Assembly (NCBI GenBank): GCA_000004985.1
Contig: GG738884.1
Origin: Naegleria gruberi
Lineage: Eukaryota
Length of the DNA stretch: 64,000 nucleotides
Direction: 5' to 3' (one strand)
A program made the position numbers and the translations under genes. Position 1 is the stretch's first letter; every line of letters begins with the position of its first letter. Shown one piece after another: positions 29,670 through 64,000 of this stretch. A model generated the notes under the pieces. That model was not told where the DNA came from. It saw only the letters and a program-made list of their open reading frames with translations, and searched no databases.

Positions 29670-30092
29670 ATTTCTTGTTGATGTATTTTTTTCTAATTGA
29701 ATTTTCTCGGCTGAGTTACGTTTGGTATTTACCTTTGTGTTTTCTCCACCTAATAATAAATTTCCTTACCATTCCGAAACAATTCCGTATTTGTTCCGTC
29801 CTTTTTTAATAGCATAACTTGTTATTAAAGAATAGATTCTGATTTAAAATTGATTTAATTAAGCTAAATAAAAGTTAATTAATAATAAAATTAAATTTCT
29901 GATTATTAGAATTATTTCAGGGTCAACTTCAATAAAGAAGTATATATCTCATATTTATTATTTAGACAGTGTACTAATATTTAACTGAATTACTTGAAAT
30001 GTTCAAGATCGAACTCGTACAATAACAAATTACAATACGGTCGTTATTTTTTTATTTTTCATCTTAAAAAAAATTAAGCAAACTGTTTCATC

Positions 30093-32284
30093 ATGGAAAA
30101 ATTAAGGGAGATTTTGAATAATTATCCAGACTCTACAGAGGTATCACTTGAGAAGTGTAATTTAACTACCTTGGATGATGTATTGGATTATTTGGGAAAA
30201 TTAGGAAATCTTAAAGTTTTAAGGCTTGGTAATAACTTCCTCTCAAAGCTTCCTTCAGATATGAGCAACATGAAAAAGCTCGAATATTTAGATGTTAGTA
30301 ACAATCCTTTTGGGGATTTGGAAGATATAATGTCAGGCTTGGTTTCTCTCCCTTCCCTAAAACATCTCTACATTTCATTGAACGAAGATGATGAAGATAA
30401 TTTGATTATTAGTATGGCTAATTTGCAATCGTTCAATGGTACACCATTAACAGATATTCCTGATAATGATCCAGCTTTATACAATGAAGAAGATGCTCCT
30501 GGTGAAACTTTTACTTCAAATCCACCTCAAGACTCCTATGCTAACACTGAACAAAACGAAAAAGTTGAATTCAATGAAACAGACCTTGAAAGTAAGTTGT
30601 TTTATCATTTTCCTTAAGGTTGATATTATTAATTAAGGTTCAAGAAAGGTTTACGAAGCATCCTGCTTATTCTTAGGACAAAAGCCTCAATTTTCAAACT
30701 TTGCTGCAGATACTATTGCACATTTAAAGAATAATTTAACAGAGGAAACTGATCACGTTAAGGCAACAATTACCATTTCAAATGCTAATAAGACATTGTA
30801 CGATAGAAGCTTTGAGGATATTATTGGTGTTATTGCAAAATCCGATAAGAAATTATCAAGTGTTTTGGCTATTGTCAAGAGCTCTTACTCTGGCCTCCTA
30901 GATGATTGTTTCACTTTGATGGATAATACTGTTCTTGAATATAATAAGAGAGTTAGATCTTTGCAGAAAGATTTAGATGCAGCAGATGTTGAAATAGGAC
31001 AACTTCTTGAAGCTGCTGAAGCACTTCAACAATCAGCTTCCGACAGTGAAAGTACTAAGAGAAAAGTATTGCTCAGCTGGGAGAAGGAAAGAGAAAGTTT
31101 GTGTGAAGAAATAGGATTCTTAAAGACTGAATTAGAAAGTAAGTTTCATAATTTTCATTCAATATTAACAAATTTTAGAATACAAGAACAGACTTACACA
31201 ATTCCAACTTAATAGACAAAAGATTTCCACACAAATCAATACTTCACCATCCAAACTACTTAAAACACCACAATCACCTTCTACAGGTAATTCACAACTG
31301 AGCAGTAGTACTTTTAAGCTGTCTCAAATTACTGTTAATGTGAATACTAAATCCCTAACTTTGCGTCAATTAAAGGATTTGATCGAAGAAATTTACGCAT
31401 CTAAGCAAAAGTTTGATGAAAAGTGTGCAGAGAGCAGACTTCCCAGAGAAACAATGGAACAACATTTATATACATACCTCAATCAAAAGTATGGTCTTAA
31501 GAATATAATTTTGGATTATGCTTCATCAATTGTCCAAGGTATTAAGAGGTACTCTACTGAAGATAACGATGTTGCTGTATTTGGAAAAATTTTAAGAAAT
31601 GAAATCGATGAAGAATTTAGATTTGTTCAAAAACAATTAAAGGATACTGTAGCTGAATTATTAAAGGTTTTCCTTAGAGGAAAATATACTAAGAAGATGG
31701 ATTCTGAAATTCAAGCAATGCTTCAACAAAGAATGTCTGGAGACATCCTTGAGGAAGAATGGGTTGATATTGTTAAATACATGTACAATAAGGAAGATTC
31801 TGTGAATGTAATTATGAAGGTAACTGAAGCTATTCAAGCCATCCAAAACAAGCTCAACAGAGGAAACAGTAGACAAATTGGGTCAACATCTCCAACTAAA
31901 AGTATTCCAAACAATCAAAATAAGGTTCCATTCAAGATTTTCCTCAAAGTCTTGTTGACATATCAATTGAAAGGTCACGAGCAATTCTTGTACAAGTTTG
32001 TCAAGTTGTTCAGAAAAGTTGATGGAGACAAGAATGGTATCTTGAGTGAAATTGAATTCAAACATTTACTTCACCTTATTAATCCAAATAGATCGGAAAG
32101 TGATTATGCTCAATGGTTGAACTATGTAGATCCTTACAATAATCAACATATAACATTTACTGAATGTGTTACTTTCCTTTCTTCAGAACTCTTAAAGTTA
32201 ATGGGTGAAAAGTCTCAAAATGATTCTGTTGATGAGGAAAATGCGGATGAGGAATTTGAATATGAAAATAATGCTGAAATGTAA
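30093..32284 (+). CDS. Leucine-rich-repeat / coiled-coil / EF-hand protein. Exons 30093..30591, 30638..31138 and 31179..32284. Possibly flagellar or centrosomal.
   Basis: N-terminal LRRs with an LRRcap-like end (LQSFNGTPL), a central coiled coil, and a C-terminal EF-hand loop DGDKNGILSEIEF. Two GTAAGT..AG introns of 46 and 40 nt are both phase 1. Confidence 0.65.
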
Positions 32285-39721: not shown

Positions 39722-41666
39722 ATGTACCAATCAACTTCATCATCATCTTCATCATTAAAAGATCGTACTCTCACTCATAAAGTGCTCATTGAAAGATTGC
39801 TAAAAGGTATGTTATTTTGTTGTATTAAGGGTTGCTTATGTGATGAACATTGTTATAATGCTGCTACTGCTACTAATAATTATACAACAATTAATAACAT
39901 CAGAATATTGCTCGCAAACTTATACCTTCAACGATCAACACATTGCCCCTTCATCACTTGTTGACTCTTCTTTTGCAATGATGCCAAACAATAACAACAT
40001 GTTGTTTGGAGGAAATAAGAATGGCAATGGTTTCTGTAACAATTCCCTCAATATTAACAATCAACAGCAAACAAACAATGGTACTTCTTCATTTCCATCA
40101 TCAAGTGGTAGTTCTGGACTACATCTTTCTCTCAATTATAACGAACTAACTAACATGCAGTATCCTCAAACCTATAATGGAAATAACATGTTCAGTTCAT
40201 CACCACATGCAACAAACTCCATCAATATTCACAAGACATGCTACGATAATAACTTCATCAGATCAAATAACCAGCATCAAGAGAATATGATCTCTCCTCT
40301 TGATTTCTCAAACATGTTCAATGTACAAAATAATAATTCATCAAACATGAATAATTGCAACATGAGGAACGGAAATCAAATTTCAAACAATTTTCACATG
40401 AATCAAAACAGTCAACAACATGTAAATTTCAACGTGGTTCCTCAAAACTCAATGACTGGTCAATACGAACCACTAGTCCAATCATTTTCAAATCCATTCC
40501 AACTAGGTTCCGCAAACCAAAGAGTATCTGAGCCTTCCTTAGCCCTTGAAGATACTTGCATTTCCCAGTTTTGTAGCACAGAGGCCCTTAACAAGAGGAA
40601 GCAAACGTTATCTGATTTCCAATTACAGTCAAACAACTCAATCTCAAATACCATAGAGTGTTCTTCAAGCATATCTCCACAACCATTCATTGAAAATAGT
40701 CAAAATGCAATGAATTTAGTTGAGAACTCTTTCAATACACATCTTGGAACGACAAACAAAATGCAATCATCATTTCCTCACAATAATAACTGTTACCTTA
40801 ATAACAACAGCAACGACATGCATTTTGGGGGAGAACATTGTTTTGATCCTTCAGATGATGCATCATCTAACGAGCATGTATCAAGTCCAAAGAGTGGAGG
40901 AAAGGAAAGAGTTGTTGCTTCAAGTGTAGGAAAGAAAGTGAATGGTAGATATACAAAGCTTAGAAAACAGTTAAGAACATTTGGAGGTGATTTCACAGAT
41001 AACTACTTTGTTTTGGATATTTCTACAGCAGGAGAGAAGAGACCAATTAAGGGAGGAAAGAAGAGAAAGTCATCACCAACCGAAAATGAATCAGAAGAAG
41101 AAATATTACATAACAATAGAAATCACAGAAGTTATACCATCCATTCTTCAGATTATAACAATAATATCAAAATCATACCAGACATGCAAAACACATCTGA
41201 TGAATGTGTAATTGACATGGACTCAAGAAGACGTTCTTCAATAGGACCAATTTCTCAATCATCAACCAATCCAGTCATTATGATAGATTCAGTCAACAAT
41301 AACTCATTCAATCCTCCTCCATCCCTAATAATTTCAAACGATTCCATGTCGAGACCATACTCCACTCCAAACAATACCATTTCCCCAAGAAGCTCCAACT
41401 CTAGAGATATAACACCACAAGAAGTTGAACAAACCGACAATAGATCTGTACAGATACTCCTCTCTCTATTAATGAATTCGGTTAATCAACAACAAGCAAC
41501 TAAGGAAATATCAATCAATAATGAATCAGTTCCACCACAATCCAATCCTCAATTCAATTTCAATGTAAATACAAGAAGTCAATCCCTTACCCCTCAAAAC
41601 TTTGCCAACAATGAGGATTTTTCATTTTTGAACATGTTGATGAGACAGAACAACAATAAACAATAA
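39722..41666 (+). CDS. Asn/Ser/Gln-rich low-complexity (prion-like) nuclear protein. Exons 39722..39806 and 39904..41666.
   Basis: MYQSTSSSSSSLKDRTLTHKVLIERLLK|EYCSQTYTFNDQ... joined across a phase-1 intron GTATGT..ATCAG of 97 nt. The ORF-track N-terminus MMNIVIMLLLLLIII is read-through of that intron. Basic patches KKVNGRYTKLRK...KGGKKRKSS suggest an NLS. Confidence 0.55.
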
Positions 41667-41957: not shown

Positions 41958-43071
41958 TTATCTATCATTCCACCAAATTACACCAAAACAATTCTCAAAT
42001 GCTTCATAAGTCATCCAGAAACAACCATCATCTGTGTTTTCATGTTTGAGTGATTTTTTCACATCTGGATACTTGTCCCATTCTGAGCTATTATCGGACC
42101 ATGGTCCATTATATTCAGTTCTTCCCCATGTATTTCTCAAATTTACTAATTTTAAATCATGTTCTGGGAATTTTCTATATCCAAGAAGTGAATAACCATG
42201 ATAATTAACAAGACCTTTCGAGTTGACCAAATCAGATCCTTCTTCACCTGGCATTGTTGCACAAACTGGAACACTTGTAGCACTGTCTAATAACTTTTCA
42301 ATTAAGGGCCAAAAAGTACCATTCTTCATCTTTTCTTTTGCCTCTGAATCTCTTCCTGTGAACCATTCTAATTGTTTGGCTCTACCACCAAATAGTAAAG
42401 AAAGAATATTCGAAGGGTAGATCAAGTGAGCATTCATCAGTGGATTTACCTTTTCATAATCTCCAACCTAATGTTAATTCATTGATTTTACAAGATCCAA
42501 AAGAGAATACTTACTAGTTTGGCTATTGCCTTTTCAATTAGAGATATCCACAATTCGCCAACATCATCTGAATGGGCAAACTTTAAACGACCATTTTCAG
42601 CAGGAAAATAATCATCTATGAGGAGAGTCATCTTCTCATTGTTTGGCTCTAAATTGAATGTGAGTGCATAGAGACCTAGTTTTGATCAATCGACTCACAA
42701 TGAATGAATACTCTCCTTAATAGATTTGGTCTCAATGCTGCTCCACTTATACTTGAAATTAAAAAGCAATCACCCAAACTTCCTTGAATTGCATCCTTAA
42801 CAGAAATATTCTTAAATACTGCCGGTTTCTTGAATAGGTCTTGTGCTCTAACACAATCACTTCTTGGAGGGAAATCCTCATCAACAAATTTCAAGTTTCT
42901 ACTCTTTAGTTCACCAACTAGATCATTTACAATATCTGGTGTTTTGAAACCAATTTTACGAGGACCAATTCTCTGATTGGAATGGCTCATTAGAATATTT
43001 CTACAACTCGACTGTTTATCATCCTCTATACATGCTGGATAATCCACATAGGTTGCCTCAATAATGTACAT
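41958..43071 (-). CDS. Calpain-type cysteine protease (catalytic core). Exons about 43071..42516 and 42467..41958, with a one-base frame break near 42680.
   Basis: FVDEDFPP...AVFKNISVKDAIQGSLGDCFLISSISGAALRPNLLRRVFIHCESIDQN, a frame slip, GLYALTFNLEPNNEKMTLLIDDYFP...ELWISLIEKAIAKL|VGDYEKVNPLMNAHLIYPSN...GLVNYHGYSLLG...LVNLRNTWGRTEYNGPWSDNSSEW. The Cys, His and Asn catalytic residues are present. The 47-nt intron is GTAAGT..TTAG. Confidence 0.75.
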
Positions 43072-43405
43072 GGTTGGTTTTTCTGTTACTTTCAACACAT
43101 ACTCAACTTGATCACTTTTCTCATCCTTCAGTAAGAAATAATGTCCACTATATGCAAAAGTTCCCCAAAACGTTGAAATAGGAGCGCTGCATAACCATGA
43201 GAAAAGTGATTTCCTTCTGTATCCACTCTAATGACATCAAACTTTCTTGTTGTATCATTTTTTATCCAAATATCAGTTTGATTATTCGAATCGAAGGTTG
43301 ACTTGAGAGATTTCCAATCAATATCACTTGCGTTAATCAAATTACAAGTATGAATATTCTTTGAAGTATCTTCCTCAATTGCATTCTCAAATTCTTCCTT
43401 CCATT

Positions 43406-43760
43406 CTAATTGATCTTTCTCTTCCTCAATTTCATTACATTCTCGTCATCATCTGACTCTTCTCCATAAAGAACTCCATCCTTTTCCTTATCATACACAA
43501 ACATTCCAGGCTGAACCTCAAAATAATCAATTGTCTCATCAGTTGGAACAAATATTGCTAGAATTTTCTGATCCCGAACAAGTCTCATTACAAATGGATG
43601 AGTGGCTGCTGTTTGTTGACAACACTTCTCTCCAGGATTTAGTGAAGGGTTGTTCCTTTCCATCATAATCCACCCATATCATTTGCACAGGTTCACCCAC
43701 TGTATTATGGAAAACAATTCGACAAACCTTATCCCATCGCTTAGAACGAAGAAGTTGCAT
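43406..43760 (-). CDS. VHL beta-domain-like small protein, frameshifted in this sequence; possible pseudogene
   Basis: MQLLRSKRWDKVCRIVFHNTVGEPVQMIWVDYDGKEQPF, a frame slip, PSLNPGEKCCQQTAATHPFVMRLVRDQKILAIFVPTDE... aligns to human VHL residues 65-120 ([33 protein letters not shown]...HLWLFRD...ELFVP). I found no alpha-domain or BC-box. Confidence 0.45.
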
Positions 43761-44012: not shown

Positions 44013-45664
44013 ATGACAACACTTCAGTTGAATGGAGAATGGACAGATAGATATGGCAAAATTTGGAGATCTTCACAAAGTGGTAATACTTTTAATTGGG
44101 TGGAAAATACTACAGGAAGAGTGGCGTCAGGAATTGTTGTTCCTTTGAGTGGGGGTGTTCAATGGATTGTATTTGCAACGTATGTATTAATATAGTTCCG
44201 ATCTGTATAAGTTATTTAGATTTGATGGAACAAAACATTTGAAATATTCAAGCAACAATGGAAATCAACTAATCTCCTCAGTGGACACATTTACTAAGGC
44301 TCCAAGTAATTCTTTTCCCACAGATTTTAACCAATCAATTATCAAAAATGTTCCCTTACTGACTGGGGCTATGTATCAAGATTATTGTGGAATGGTATGT
44401 TAACATAATTTGAGGATAAACAATCAATTACGAAGATTTGGAATTGTTCAAATCATGAGGGTGGTCACTTTGTTTTGAGTAATTTAACTGATGGAAGAAG
44501 CTGTGATGGATATGTAGTGTTTGATATTTACAGAAACGTATTCATTATTTATATTGTATTTGTTAGAAATGGTGTGGAAAATGTCTTCAAATCAGAAGCA
44601 ACAAACCTGAACGAAATGGATTTATCTAATGGAGACTATTTCAGAAGAGTTGGTGGAAATACACCACTTCCTCAACCAGTAGATCCGCCTCTTCTTCCAA
44701 CCACAACTCAACAATTACCTCAACCAACTCCAATTCAAATGCCACCGCAACCAACAACAAGATACTACAGAATTGGTGGTGGAAAAGATGGTGTGTCAAC
44801 ATGGACTAAATGGAATGGTTTACCTTGCCTTACAGTTGTTGAGGGTTGGGAAGTGGTTTTTGAAGTTGACCGTAAGTATCTTTATAATAACAATTTAATA
44901 TCAACAAATCCATAAGAAAATGGAAATATTTCTGGAAGCAATAGAACTGATTACAAGAATACTATGTTAACAAAATACTACAGTGGGACTTTCAAAAATA
45001 ATGTCTTTGATATATCAGCAAAATTCTCTGATGGAAGAGTAATATCATACAAGGTTTGTTGTTGTAAAGTTATGATAATTAATATGTTACTTATATTATA
45101 TTAGGGAAGCTTAACAGGTAATAAGGTTCGAGTGGATTATGTAATTCTTACTCCTGGAAATCTTCAGGGAGGCACGATAGGCGATGGTGGATTCAATGTT
45201 GGAACTTTGTTCGAAACATCAGCCCCTCCATGTCAGCCAAAAACATATACTATTAATGGAAAAACTTATTGGAAAAGATATAATGCACTTCCCAGTGTAA
45301 GTAATTTGAAATTAAGTTGCTCACAAATTTAAAGAGTAGCATTGTGGATGGTTGGATGATGAGTTTTAATGTTGACAGTAAGTTCTCTCAAAATTGAAAT
45401 GTTTATAAAATTTCATTAGAATATGGAAATATTTCTGGAAGTAATAAGAATGCTGGTCAAGCATTTACGAAAACATACAGTGGCACCTTAATTAATAATT
45501 TAATGGATGCAACTGCCAAATGGGATGATGGCAGAACTGCAACATACAAAGGCTCTATTACCAACAATACCATAAAACTTGATTTTATCATTACAGCACC
45601 TGGTACTCAACCAGGTCAATCTGGTGATTCAGGATTTAATACTGGAATAGTTACAAGTAATTAA
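44013..45664 (+). CDS. Intron-dense gene (8 exons) for an internally duplicated lectin-like or beta-sandwich protein of unknown family. Exons 44013..44179, 44220..44394, 44436..44871, 44917..45053, 45105..45296, 45335..45377, 45420..45664.
   Basis: All junctions are GT-AG with introns of 38-51 nt, and the frame is maintained throughout. The protein has two tandem units W.GLP..VV(E/D)GW..F(E/N)VD | (Q/K)(N/Y)GNISGSN...YSGT..NN..D..AK..DGR...YKGS.T.N...D.I.(T/A)PG...G..GD.GFN.G. It has a Pro/Gln/Thr-rich linker and a Trp-rich N-terminal module. Confidence 0.6.
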
Positions 45665-45794: not shown

Positions 45795-46238
45795 ATGAGC
45801 TTCTACCACAACGATCATGATGTAGACACCGAACAAGACGATCACAATCACCTCACAGGTGATGAAGTTATTTGGAGAATAATACAAAATGATCAGGAAA
45901 ATATGCATGATCATCAAAGTGGTGGTAAACCTCCAGCCTCTAAAACATTTATGAGAAATATGGAAGTTATTTGGTTTGATCCGGAAGATGCAGAAGATGC
46001 TCAATATAAGGATGAATCATGTCCTATCTGTGGAGAGGAATATAAGAAGGGAGATCAGTGCCATAAATTAGAGGACTGTAATCACTTCTTTCATATCAAG
46101 TGTTTGAAATTGTGGTTTGAAAAACATAATACTTGTCCAATGTGCAGGAAAGATGTTCTCACAGATGACCCTGAATATGAAGAACAAAAATTGGATCCTT
46201 CCAGATTGAAGGATAACATCCACAGCATGTACATGTAA
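45795..46238 (+). CDS. RING-H2 zinc-finger protein (putative E3 ubiquitin ligase), 147 aa
   Basis: CPICGEEY...CHKLEDCNHFFHIKCLKLWFEKHNTCPMCR is a C3H2C3 RING-H2. Confidence 0.75.
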   Translation: MSFYHNDHDVDTEQDDHNHLTGDEVIWRIIQNDQENMHDHQSGGKPPASKTFMRNMEVIWFDPEDAEDAQYKDESCPICGEEYKKGDQCHKLEDCNHFFHIKCLKLWFEKHNTCPMCRKDVLTDDPEYEEQKLDPSRLKDNIHSMYM

Positions 46239-62033: not shown

Positions 62034-64000
62034 TTAAAGAAAATCAAGGGTTGTAAAGTATTTGGGAAGGTAGAAATCTGAAGAATAGCTCAATTTCATT
62101 CTCTTGAAGAGTAGGTCCTTAATATATTCAGCTTGCATTGTATCCAGTGATTCAAGTGAAAAATATCCACATTGTTTTAGAGCTTCAAGTTCTAGAGTTT
62201 CATCAGTAAACCTTGAGTAATGGTATAAAAATCCACATGACCGAACAGCTCTCAGGTTGAATTCCCAATCTTCCATAATTTCGTGTGGTACAAATGAATA
62301 AAATTGAAATGCTGTTTCAAATTTGTTAATGCATGATAATACTATTTCAGGATCTGATTTAACTTTCAAAGCCAAATGTTGAATCAAATATGTATTCTTC
62401 TTACAAACTTCCACAACAGTTTGCTTATCTTTTTCATATATAGCTTGTTGAATCTGATGATCAATATAGTCAAAGTAGTTTGGGTATTTTTGCATAACTT
62501 CAATGAGCAGATCTATCAGTTCAATTTGCATCTCAGAGGATGAATAAATTAAAGAAACTGGGTGTTTTCTGATGAGGTCTAATTGTTTCTCTGGTGGAAA
62601 ACATTCAATTAGTGATGGATGATTATTTAACATTTCATCGACCAAAGCTTCTTCTTCCAAAAAGTGTGGTGGAATAATTTCCAGCCAACCATCATTACAC
62701 CTATCGTTAGATAACAGAGCTCTCACGAATTCTCTATCATTTTTCATATATTCTGGCACTTCTATATCAGTAATTTTTCTACATTTTTGTGCCATGAATA
62801 ATAGAATATCCTTGTCTTGCTTGAGTTGTGGAGAAATAAACTCATAATTTTCAATATCAACTCTTAAAGATATCAATATTAATTCCTTATCATTACGTAA
62901 TTTTTCATTCAGTAAATCCACGAAAAGACAGTCATACGGCTTATTCTCACAAATTATTTGTAAAGCGTCCATAATAAATTCTCTATTACTTCCAAGCTCT
63001 GAGCATTCTAAAGTTTTACGCAACTTTGGATCTATTGATAAATATCTCAAGCAAAATTCTGGATCTGATTTCAACTTAATGGAAGCCAAACTGAATATAC
63101 AATGATCAATTTCAATAAGTTTCAAAACAAATTCTGGATCTTCCATCAGGCTCTTATGCGCAAATTGAAAACTCTGTGACTTGGAAATACAAGCCTTTTC
63201 AACTATTTCCTTATCTTTTCTGAAAGATTCATCTGCAAATTCAAGACTCAAGCCATCATTAATAACAGCACATAAAGTAATTTCTCTATCGAGTTTCAAC
63301 TGATCAGAAATAAATTTCAAACAATAGCCATTGGTTTTAAGTACTTGTATCATTTTACACTTGTCATTCCTTATTTCAAATGGGAGGTCTTCAAATTTTG
63401 AGTTTTTGTAGGGATCTTCAATATGATAACCTAGTATATCTATATCATTAACAGCCAAAAAAACATGCTTATTTTCTTGTAACACTTTCTTAAACCATTC
63501 TTCATTGTACAATAATGATTCATCTGCACTTTCAATGGAATAAATCGATTTCTGAACAGCTTTTGACATGAAATCTTCAGATTTCAATAGGTCTTCATCA
63601 ACTCCGCAAAGATATCTATGATCCGACTCCACAATTTCTAGAATAAACTCAATATCACTAGCAAGTTTATCTGCTAGAAATTCCAAAACATGGAATGTTT
63701 GAAACTTTGACTTTAACATTGCTCTTACAATTTCCTTGTCTCCTCTCAATTCTTCACTTCCTGCAGCAAACATGCCATTATAAACAGAGATTAGTCTCAA
63801 TAGTAATTCTCTATCTTTTACACAAACAGCTTCTAATGGAATAAAGTTAATGATAGTATCTCCACTATCAACCCAAAATCTATCACAATACTTTTCCATA
63901 ATTTCAGCAAACATTATACCATCCCGTATCAATTCAATAGGACAAAACACAGGAAGTGTAGAAGAGGTTTTTACATGAAAATCAACATATTCCAAATATC
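62034..64000 (-). CDS. DUF4116 repeat protein. The ORF is open to the window end (63995 is a TTG codon), so the real 5' end lies beyond 64000.
   Basis: Many about 35-residue repeats of the form L(K/R)ND(K/R)E(F/I)(V/I)L.A(L/V)..(D/N)G..L(E/K)(F/Y)(A/I)S..LK.D, typical of DUF4116. Confidence 0.55.
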   Translation of the reverse strand, partial: YLEYVDFHVKTSSTLPVFCPIELIRDGIMFAEIMEKYCDRFWVDSGDTIINFIPLEAVCVKDRELLLRLISVYNGMFAAGSEELRGDKEIVRAMLKSKFQTFHVLEFLADKLASDIEFILEIVESDHRYLCGVDEDLLKSEDFMSKAVQKSIYSIESADESLLYNEEWFKKVLQENKHVFLAVNDIDILGYHIEDPYKNSKFEDLPFEIRNDKCKMIQVLKTNGYCLKFISDQLKLDREITLCAVINDGLSLEFADESFRKDKEIVEKACISKSQSFQFAHKSLMEDPEFVLKLIEIDHCIFSLASIKLKSDPEFCLRYLSIDPKLRKTLECSELGSNREFIMDALQIICENKPYDCLFVDLLNEKLRNDKELILISLRVDIENYEFISPQLKQDKDILLFMAQKCRKITDIEVPEYMKNDREFVRALLSNDRCNDGWLEIIPPHFLEEEALVDEMLNNHPSLIECFPPEKQLDLIRKHPVSLIYSSSEMQIELIDLLIEVMQKYPNYFDYIDHQIQQAIYEKDKQTVVEVCKKNTYLIQHLALKVKSDPEIVLSCINKFETAFQFYSFVPHEIMEDWEFNLRAVRSCGFLYHYSRFTDETLELEALKQCGYFSLESLDTMQAEYIKDLLFKRMKLSYSSDFYLPKYFTTLDFL

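Follow-up and report, generated by a model that had tools for sequence, protein, structure and literature searches.

The window, by which we refer to the whole 64-kb stretch of DNA analysed here, is gene-dense, AT-rich (31% GC) and eukaryotic, and uses the standard code. On its minus strand, a three-frame translation that is followed past a VHL-like domain passes through an acidic linker and a second beta-rich segment into a calpain core. Judged by sequence comparison, this locus, from a Naegleria species near N. gruberi, is the orthologue of a conserved heterolobosean gene whose predicted product joins two domains of the von Hippel-Lindau (VHL) beta fold, with no alpha domain, to a calpain-type cysteine protease, and it is accordingly assigned to both the VHL-beta domain family and the calpain family. 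The reading frame switches four times along the gene, with no space for introns at the switches; when the frame-preserving state is chosen at each indel site, the conceptual product is 585 aa long. Compared with the window by tblastn, this repaired protein is returned as six collinear pieces in frames -3, -1, -3, -2, -1 and, after the intron, again -3. The gene is laid out in the order VHL-beta (domain 1), acidic linker, VHL-beta-like domain 2 and calpain core:

41958..43760, minus strand: whole gene, with its ATG at 43760, its stop at 41960-41958 and four frame breaks in the window copy
43508..43751, minus strand: domain 1, VHL beta domain, split across two frames at 43642/43641
43314..43507, minus strand: acidic linker, of low confidence in structure prediction, which harbours frame break 2
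43057..43313, minus strand: domain 2, diverged and VHL-beta-like, which harbours frame break 3
41982..42978, minus strand: calpain catalytic core (Pfam Peptidase_C2), which harbours frame break 4
42777, minus strand: start of the LGDCF motif with the catalytic Cys
42468..42514, minus strand: sole intron, 47 nt, GTAAGT...TTAG
42203, minus strand: YHGYS motif with the catalytic His
42140, minus strand: LRNTW motif with the catalytic Asn

Several other features of the window lie near this gene or at the ends of the sequence. The divergent neighbour at 44013-45664 (plus strand) is a multi-exon gene with several short open frames, repeated Trp/Gly-rich modules and a Pro/Gln-rich stretch. An open frame for a RING-H2 zinc finger (CPICGEEY...) follows at 45795-46238 (plus strand), upstream of the VHL-calpain gene by 2 kb; that an E3-type gene is so close is probably a coincidence. 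Directly downstream of the calpain gene region, a 608-aa open frame at 39840-41666 (plus strand) is very rich in Asn, Ser and Gln, of low complexity and with no recognised domain. The first 2,000 positions of the window have a GC content of 17.7%, against ~31% overall, and include a SET-domain open frame at 658-1533, while at the other end a 653-aa open frame on the minus strand (62034-63995) carries seven DUF4116 repeats (206 bits). The DUF4116 family is expanded in Naegleria, in keeping with the taxonomic assignment.

Gene architecture and relatives

An exact-protein match to the last calpain exon led to a metagenome contig of 2,688 nt (ENA ERZ929261, hereafter L001), which is 98.7% identical to positions 44399-41710 of the window. 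On L001 a single 365-aa open frame leads from within the VHL domain to the calpain part. Intact orthologues were found in two Naegleria species. The N. gruberi protein XP_002670360 (NAEGRDRAFT_74673, D2VZZ5) has 576 aa and is 69% identical over 100% of the length of the repaired protein, and the N. fowleri protein XP_044567457 (FDP41_010723, A0A6A5C8B3) has 566 aa and is 37% identical from end to end. Both have the same domain order and a similar length as the window gene, but are intact where the latter has four breaks; their database labels are only 'predicted protein' and 'calpain catalytic domain-containing protein', respectively.

To find further relatives, the N. gruberi protein was used as the query of an exhaustive phmmer search, and Pfam scans followed. 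Two PF01847 stretches (45.8-62.2 bits) and, after them, Peptidase_C2 are present in the N. fowleri protein (P0006) and in each of two metagenome proteins (P0008 and P0009), and the intact proteins that share this architecture measure 576, 566, 551 and 549 aa. P0008 is a single open frame on a 47-kb eukaryotic contig, where it is accompanied by genes for enolase, guanylate cyclase and a Med26-like protein (a weak match), and its precomputed annotation already assigns it VHL plus Peptidase_C2. The continuous frame of L001 from domain 1 to the calpain, the intact orthologues and the single frame of P0008 together indicate that the fusion is real. A word-indexed homologue search with the N-terminal region alone returned the L001 protein only, and exact-protein look-ups of six other open frames of the window (including the two broken VHL frames) and of P0002 gave no match and no third allele.

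These results bear on two claims of the preliminary description of this locus, in which neither the second VHL-like domain nor the continuation of the open frame into the calpain was recognised. It had placed the VHL-like sequence next to a calpain gene; the two belong to the same gene, as the frame runs from VHL through the second VHL-like domain to the calpain in L001 and in the N. gruberi and N. fowleri orthologues. It had also proposed a stand-alone, beta-domain-only protein of ~117 aa, comparable to the human VHL-like protein (VLP), beside an independent calpain gene. As written in the window, the latter half of domain 1 does end at a stop at 43406, and neither an alpha domain nor a BC-box is present, as would suit such a protein. 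However, this stop exists solely through frame break 2, and the L001 frame, 365 aa long, leads on into the calpain. In N. gruberi, N. fowleri and the metagenomes the protein is one polypeptide of 549-576 aa, and there is no promoter-sized gap or separate start codon ahead of the calpain part. We therefore consider a separate small protein very unlikely, and on the sequence comparisons the "stand-alone VHL" is an artefact of the frame breaks.

The calpain part, which falls into MEROPS C2, is recognised by Pfam as Peptidase_C2 (PF00648), with 32.8 and 90.3 bits for the fragments in the window and 163 bits for the orthologue. Its motifs LGDCF, YHGYS and LRNTWG align with LGDCW, GHAYS and IRNPWG of human calpain-9, and with the Cys/His/Asn triad intact by this comparison, the encoded protease looks competent. 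The enzyme is read in an uninterrupted frame in the orthologues, with one break in L001 and four in the window copy.

The sole intron joins AKL to VGDYEKV, a junction that is the same in the N. gruberi protein. The GTAAGT...AG form recurs in other introns of the window, and the two window introns that were measured have lengths of 46-47 nt. For the look of real introns in this genome, the internal reference was a set of three successive open frames at 30078-32281 (plus strand), which lie in different frames with canonical GTAAGT...TAG introns between them. Two shorter candidates within the gene were rejected: a 23-nt GTGAGT...CTAG "intron" at 42698-42676, where CESIDPKLGLY is uninterrupted in L001 and N. 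gruberi, and a 14/20-nt GTAATG...AG "intron" near 43440, where the same holds for DDEECNEIEEE.

The two VHL-like domains

The open frame with the first half of domain 1 is read on the minus strand from the ATG at 43760 (MQLL...WVDYDGKEQPF; MQLLRSKRWDKVCRIVFHNTVGEPVQMIWVDYDGKEQPF). The second half follows in the +1 frame, displaced by one base, as (P)SLNPGEKCCQQTAATHPFVMRLVRDQKILAIFVP, which ends at the stop at 43406 on the same strand. The VHL-like peptides quoted in the preliminary description are thus found on the strand and at the positions it gave, and the resemblance to the VHL beta domain that it had noticed is borne out. The gathering threshold of Pfam PF01847 is 21 bits; the unrepaired 73-aa open frame reaches 21.0 bits, exactly at this cut-off, a first crude repair of the domain gives 25.4 bits, and the repair supported by the relatives (QPFTVLNPGEK) gives a significant match of 31.5 bits (E 1.8e-7). 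A sequence search of the PDB returned VHL in all 24 of its 24 matches at E<=10. These Pfam scores and the exclusively VHL matches in the PDB argue that the resemblance is real rather than a matter of chance. For comparison, the whole N. gruberi protein scores 20.3 bits for VHL, slightly under the Pfam cut-off.

An independent HMM, for which the only sources were human VHL and repeats taken from unrelated giant metagenome proteins, gave 55.7 bits for the repaired domain 1 of the window, and 47.8, 54.6 and 52.0 bits for the first domains of N. fowleri P0006, P0008 and P0009. In a six-frame scan of the whole window it matched this gene only, in two frames, with the match split at HMM positions 33-37. 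Predicted structure models contain a seven-stranded beta-sandwich that can be superimposed on pVHL; these models are of moderate confidence (mean pLDDT 69 and 62) and have an alignment of six sequences beneath them. Downstream of domain 1 lies the acidic linker, whose equivalents in the orthologue model (residues 91-130) have a pLDDT <50.

The second domain is far less conspicuous in the window. It has no Pfam match there, and the independent HMM gives it 14.3 bits, compared with 44.2 bits in N. fowleri P0006, 58.9 in P0008 and 47.2 in P0009, where its equivalents are matched by PF01847 and account for the second of the two stretches per protein. A profile-profile comparison of domain 1 with domain 2, each represented by a two-sequence profile, gave E 0.051 and a probability of 1%, with the aligned segment in register. 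The two PF01847 stretches of the relatives, together with the scores of the independent HMM, indicate that domain 2 is a domain of the VHL-beta fold that has diverged strongly in N. gruberi and the window lineage.

What defines pVHL beyond its beta domain is lacking here. No Pfam match to VHL_C was found in the window, the orthologue or the relatives scanned, and a relaxed BC-box pattern that finds TLKERCLQVV in the human protein finds nothing after the beta domains of this gene, in agreement with the earlier observation that both elements are missing. Since the alpha domain that defines it was tested for and is absent, we conclude that the gene is not an orthologue of pVHL. Compared with human pVHL (PF01847; PDB 1LM8, 4WQO, 7KHH), an E3 substrate receptor, the beta domain is here present in tandem duplicate and fused to a protease, with no alpha domain or BC-box and no visible docking site for Elongin C/Cul2. 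Among the open frames scanned in the 64-kb window there was no HIF-alpha, PHD/EGLN, Elongin B/C or Cul2. Human VLP (VHLL), a small stand-alone protein that derives from a vertebrate VHL retrocopy, is similar in that its beta domain also lacks an elongin-binding alpha domain; in contrast, the window domain serves as the N-terminal module in a calpain of 585 aa and has no specific kinship to VLP.

We next compared the residues Trp88, Tyr98, Ser111, His115 and Trp117, which we take from published VHL-HIF structures to form the hydroxyproline pocket. At these positions domain 1 of the window has W, F, T, H and F, with Ala at the position of Tyr112, and domain 2 has R, H, A, H and F. The equivalent of His115 is present in every copy that aligns there, i.e., all but domain 2 of N. 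gruberi, and that of Trp88 in all copies but two, the second domains of the window and N. gruberi proteins, which have Arg. The position of Ser111 is Ser or Thr in most copies, with Ala in domain 1 of N. gruberi, and that of Trp117 is Trp or Phe. Of these proteins, those of N. fowleri and P0008 retain the pocket best. Given the changes of Tyr98 to Phe and of Tyr112 to Ala, the Ala111 of N. gruberi and, in domain 2, the loss of Trp88 along with the weak score, the binding of hydroxyproline is far from assured.

Domains of this family also occur in prokaryotic proteins, where they have been noted as being of unknown function and as a partner in retron type X (PMC7736814). The prokaryotic and metagenomic PF01847 proteins that we compared have the beta domain in common with the window gene, retain a T-[FY]-x-T-H-P-W motif even better, and also have no alpha domain. 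They differ in their partners, which are IHF with a TM helix, or a beta/gamma-crystallin with a long C-terminal region, and no protease is attached. Among the metagenome proteins are four giants (P0017, P0019, P0030 and P0078) of 1,700-2,000 aa with 8-10 tandem PF01847 domains (305-346 bits), followed by a beta/gamma-crystallin-like segment and then the long C-terminal region. One locus for such a protein (L002, 281-5419) has Peptidase_S8, IDO and AdoHcyase as neighbours, and one member of the cluster comes from a MAG catalogue; these giant proteins are probably bacterial in origin.

Frame breaks in the window copy

An alignment of the window with L001 places the indels exactly at the frame breaks:

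43641..43642, minus strand: frame break 1, at which the window lacks TGTCT (5 nt) present in L001; the intact reading is QPFTVLNPGEK
43631..43632, minus strand: GA dinucleotide, present in the window and missing from L001, where its loss is the sole frame break
~43451-43441, minus strand: frame break 2, 2 extra nt (CG at 43445/4), equally readable as +GAT and -G
43187/43186, minus strand: frame break 3, a tandem duplication of GC; L001 is without the GC
between 42685 and 42684, minus strand: frame break 4, a missing C; L001 has the extra C

The N. gruberi protein reads uninterrupted across frame break 1, as QPFTVLNSGGKCCQQ (QPFTVLNSGGK at the break itself), which validates the repair QPFTVLNPGEKCCQQ. 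As it also agrees with L001 at the other three sites, all four breaks are derived in the window. The false stop at 43408-43406 results from frame break 2. The preliminary description had seen a single slip, at the QPF site: the slip is real and its proposed size of 5 nt was right, but the bases were not, as the alignment to L001 and to the N. gruberi protein identifies a deletion of TGTCT, and the copy holds three further breaks, near 43445/4, 43187/6 and 42685/42684. Because the four indels break the frame, the window copy as written cannot encode the full protein and would make at best a 73-aa N-terminal fragment. The GA loss of L001 (at about position 770 of that contig) lies 10 nt from the 5-nt deletion of the window and shifts the downstream frame by an equal amount. 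A DNA pattern scan of JGI metagenomes over frame break 1, which allowed for both alleles, gave 0 matches, and a literature search for the project accession PRJEB11402 found nothing.

We infer the cause of the indels from their form and context, and mainly two readings have to be weighed. According to the first, the source assembly is locally of poor quality, its consensus is wrong at the four breaks, and the VHL-VHL-calpain gene is intact and expressed in the organism itself; we give this a little under an even chance. According to the second, to which we assign an even chance, the window carries a true allele or pseudogene that was inactivated very recently, and a functional copy may persist on another haplotype.

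Coding differences between the window and L001 comprise 9 synonymous and 4 non-synonymous changes (dN/dS 0.11, with neutrality rejected at p = 1.7e-4), from which it follows that the gene was constrained until very recently. This purifying selection, the intact catalytic triad and the preservation of all motifs speak against a null allele, and the low dN/dS fits assembly errors. No more than ~1-3 of the non-synonymous changes are attributable to the window lineage, while four indels, at the indel:substitution ratio of non-coding DNA, predict many more; the contrast between four indels and so few such changes argues for error. The ratio of indels to substitutions in the coding sequence is, at 5:13, unusually high, and the non-coding flanks within the same 2.7 kb add two more indels, including one at a T9/T8 run.

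The form and the distribution of the breaks point in both directions. For two of them a miscounted homopolymer (CC to C, GG to G) is a possible reading, as suits a faulty consensus, but a 5-nt deletion in non-repetitive sequence and a tandem duplication of GC are atypical of such errors. Slippage is instead suggested by the form of the GC duplication, of the GA repeat unit that L001 has lost and of a change in a GAT repeat. The rest of the 64-kb window contains long intact open frames and full-length conserved domains; the other conserved genes are full length, other frame changes carry canonical GTAAGT introns, and a heuristic scan of the window found no other frame break without an intron. 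This restriction of the breaks to one gene region speaks against consensus errors and favours a null allele, as does domain 2, which has already diverged strongly in N. gruberi and the window lineage. Moreover, in L001, an independent Illumina-type contig, domain 1 is broken by a separate 2-nt indel, such that each of the two alleles has an independent lesion in this domain, at a distance of 10 nt from the other. Breaks confined to one gene region, their slippage-like look and the separate break of L001 nearby thus argue for real decay.

A third reading, in which programmed ribosomal frameshifting, editing or tiny non-canonical introns would bridge the frame changes, has in its favour that the window and L001 shift the frame downstream of domain 1 by an equal amount. 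However, the shift sites of the two alleles differ and have no common slippery motif, the four sites require shifts in both directions, and the orthologues encode the same peptide without any shift. Nor does a GT...AG pair of the right length class span any of the sites, the real introns of the window being of the GTAAGT...AG type and length described above. We regard decoding of this kind as scarcely credible.

Proposed function and implications

We infer the function and ligand of the VHL-like domains from their fold, their pocket residues and the partner to which they are fused. The two beta domains would act as peptide-recognition modules, using the face and the pocket with which VHL recognises the hydroxyproline of HIF, and would present the protein they bind to the calpain core, to which they are covalently joined, for limited proteolysis. 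In the animal counterpart, the recognition step recruits Elongin C and Cul2 and leads to ubiquitination. A role of the tandem beta domains as targeting modules of the calpain is, on present sequence evidence, the most likely one. Taken as a whole, the explanation that combines a conserved gene, a targeting-module mechanism and a broken window copy appears to us probable, with good confidence. We further speculate that heterolobosean VHL-VHL-calpains may be hydroxyproline-directed proteases: depending on oxygen, a substrate would receive its mark from a cytoplasmic prolyl 4-hydroxylase, the VHL-beta domains would read the mark via their conserved Ser/Thr-His-Trp/Phe pocket, and the calpain would cleave. 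We consider this more specific proposal unlikely; if true, it would constitute an oxygen-sensing degradation route with a VHL reader and without ubiquitin, and would make the hydroxyproline reader older than animals.

The preliminary description regarded VHL outside Metazoa as unusual. This stands as far as the oxygen-sensing literature is concerned, which regards VHL as an invention of animals that links prolyl hydroxylation to ubiquitination and in which the HIF/PHD/VHL pathway is placed in animals only and was not found in protists (PMC9618697), but it does not hold for the databases, where PF01847 occurs in proteins of Naegleria, of uncultured eukaryotes and probably of bacteria. With regard to the protease, a survey of unicellular eukaryotes found that N. 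gruberi genes encode five calpain variants (Zhao et al. 2012, PMC3563603). The non-classical calpains of unicellular eukaryotes resemble the window gene in that they combine a CysPc core with lineage-specific accessory domains (PMC3563603). VHL is nowhere mentioned in the main text of that survey, and a VHL-beta accessory domain is therefore not among the combinations described there. Our literature search found no link between VHL, calpain and Naegleria, and the papers that mention both VHL and Naegleria name neither in the title or abstract. The VHL-VHL-calpain architecture is thus present in databases and, judging from the literature searched, undescribed.

Overall, these data place a VHL recognition domain, with much of its pocket kept, in a lineage of free-living amoeboflagellates, the pathogen N. 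fowleri among them, where the domain appears to have been duplicated and wired to a protease rather than to a cullin ligase. The repertoire of protist calpains would thereby gain an undescribed accessory domain. The locus also makes it possible to test concretely whether hydroxyproline, or another proline-rich degron, was already read by the VHL beta fold before there were animals.
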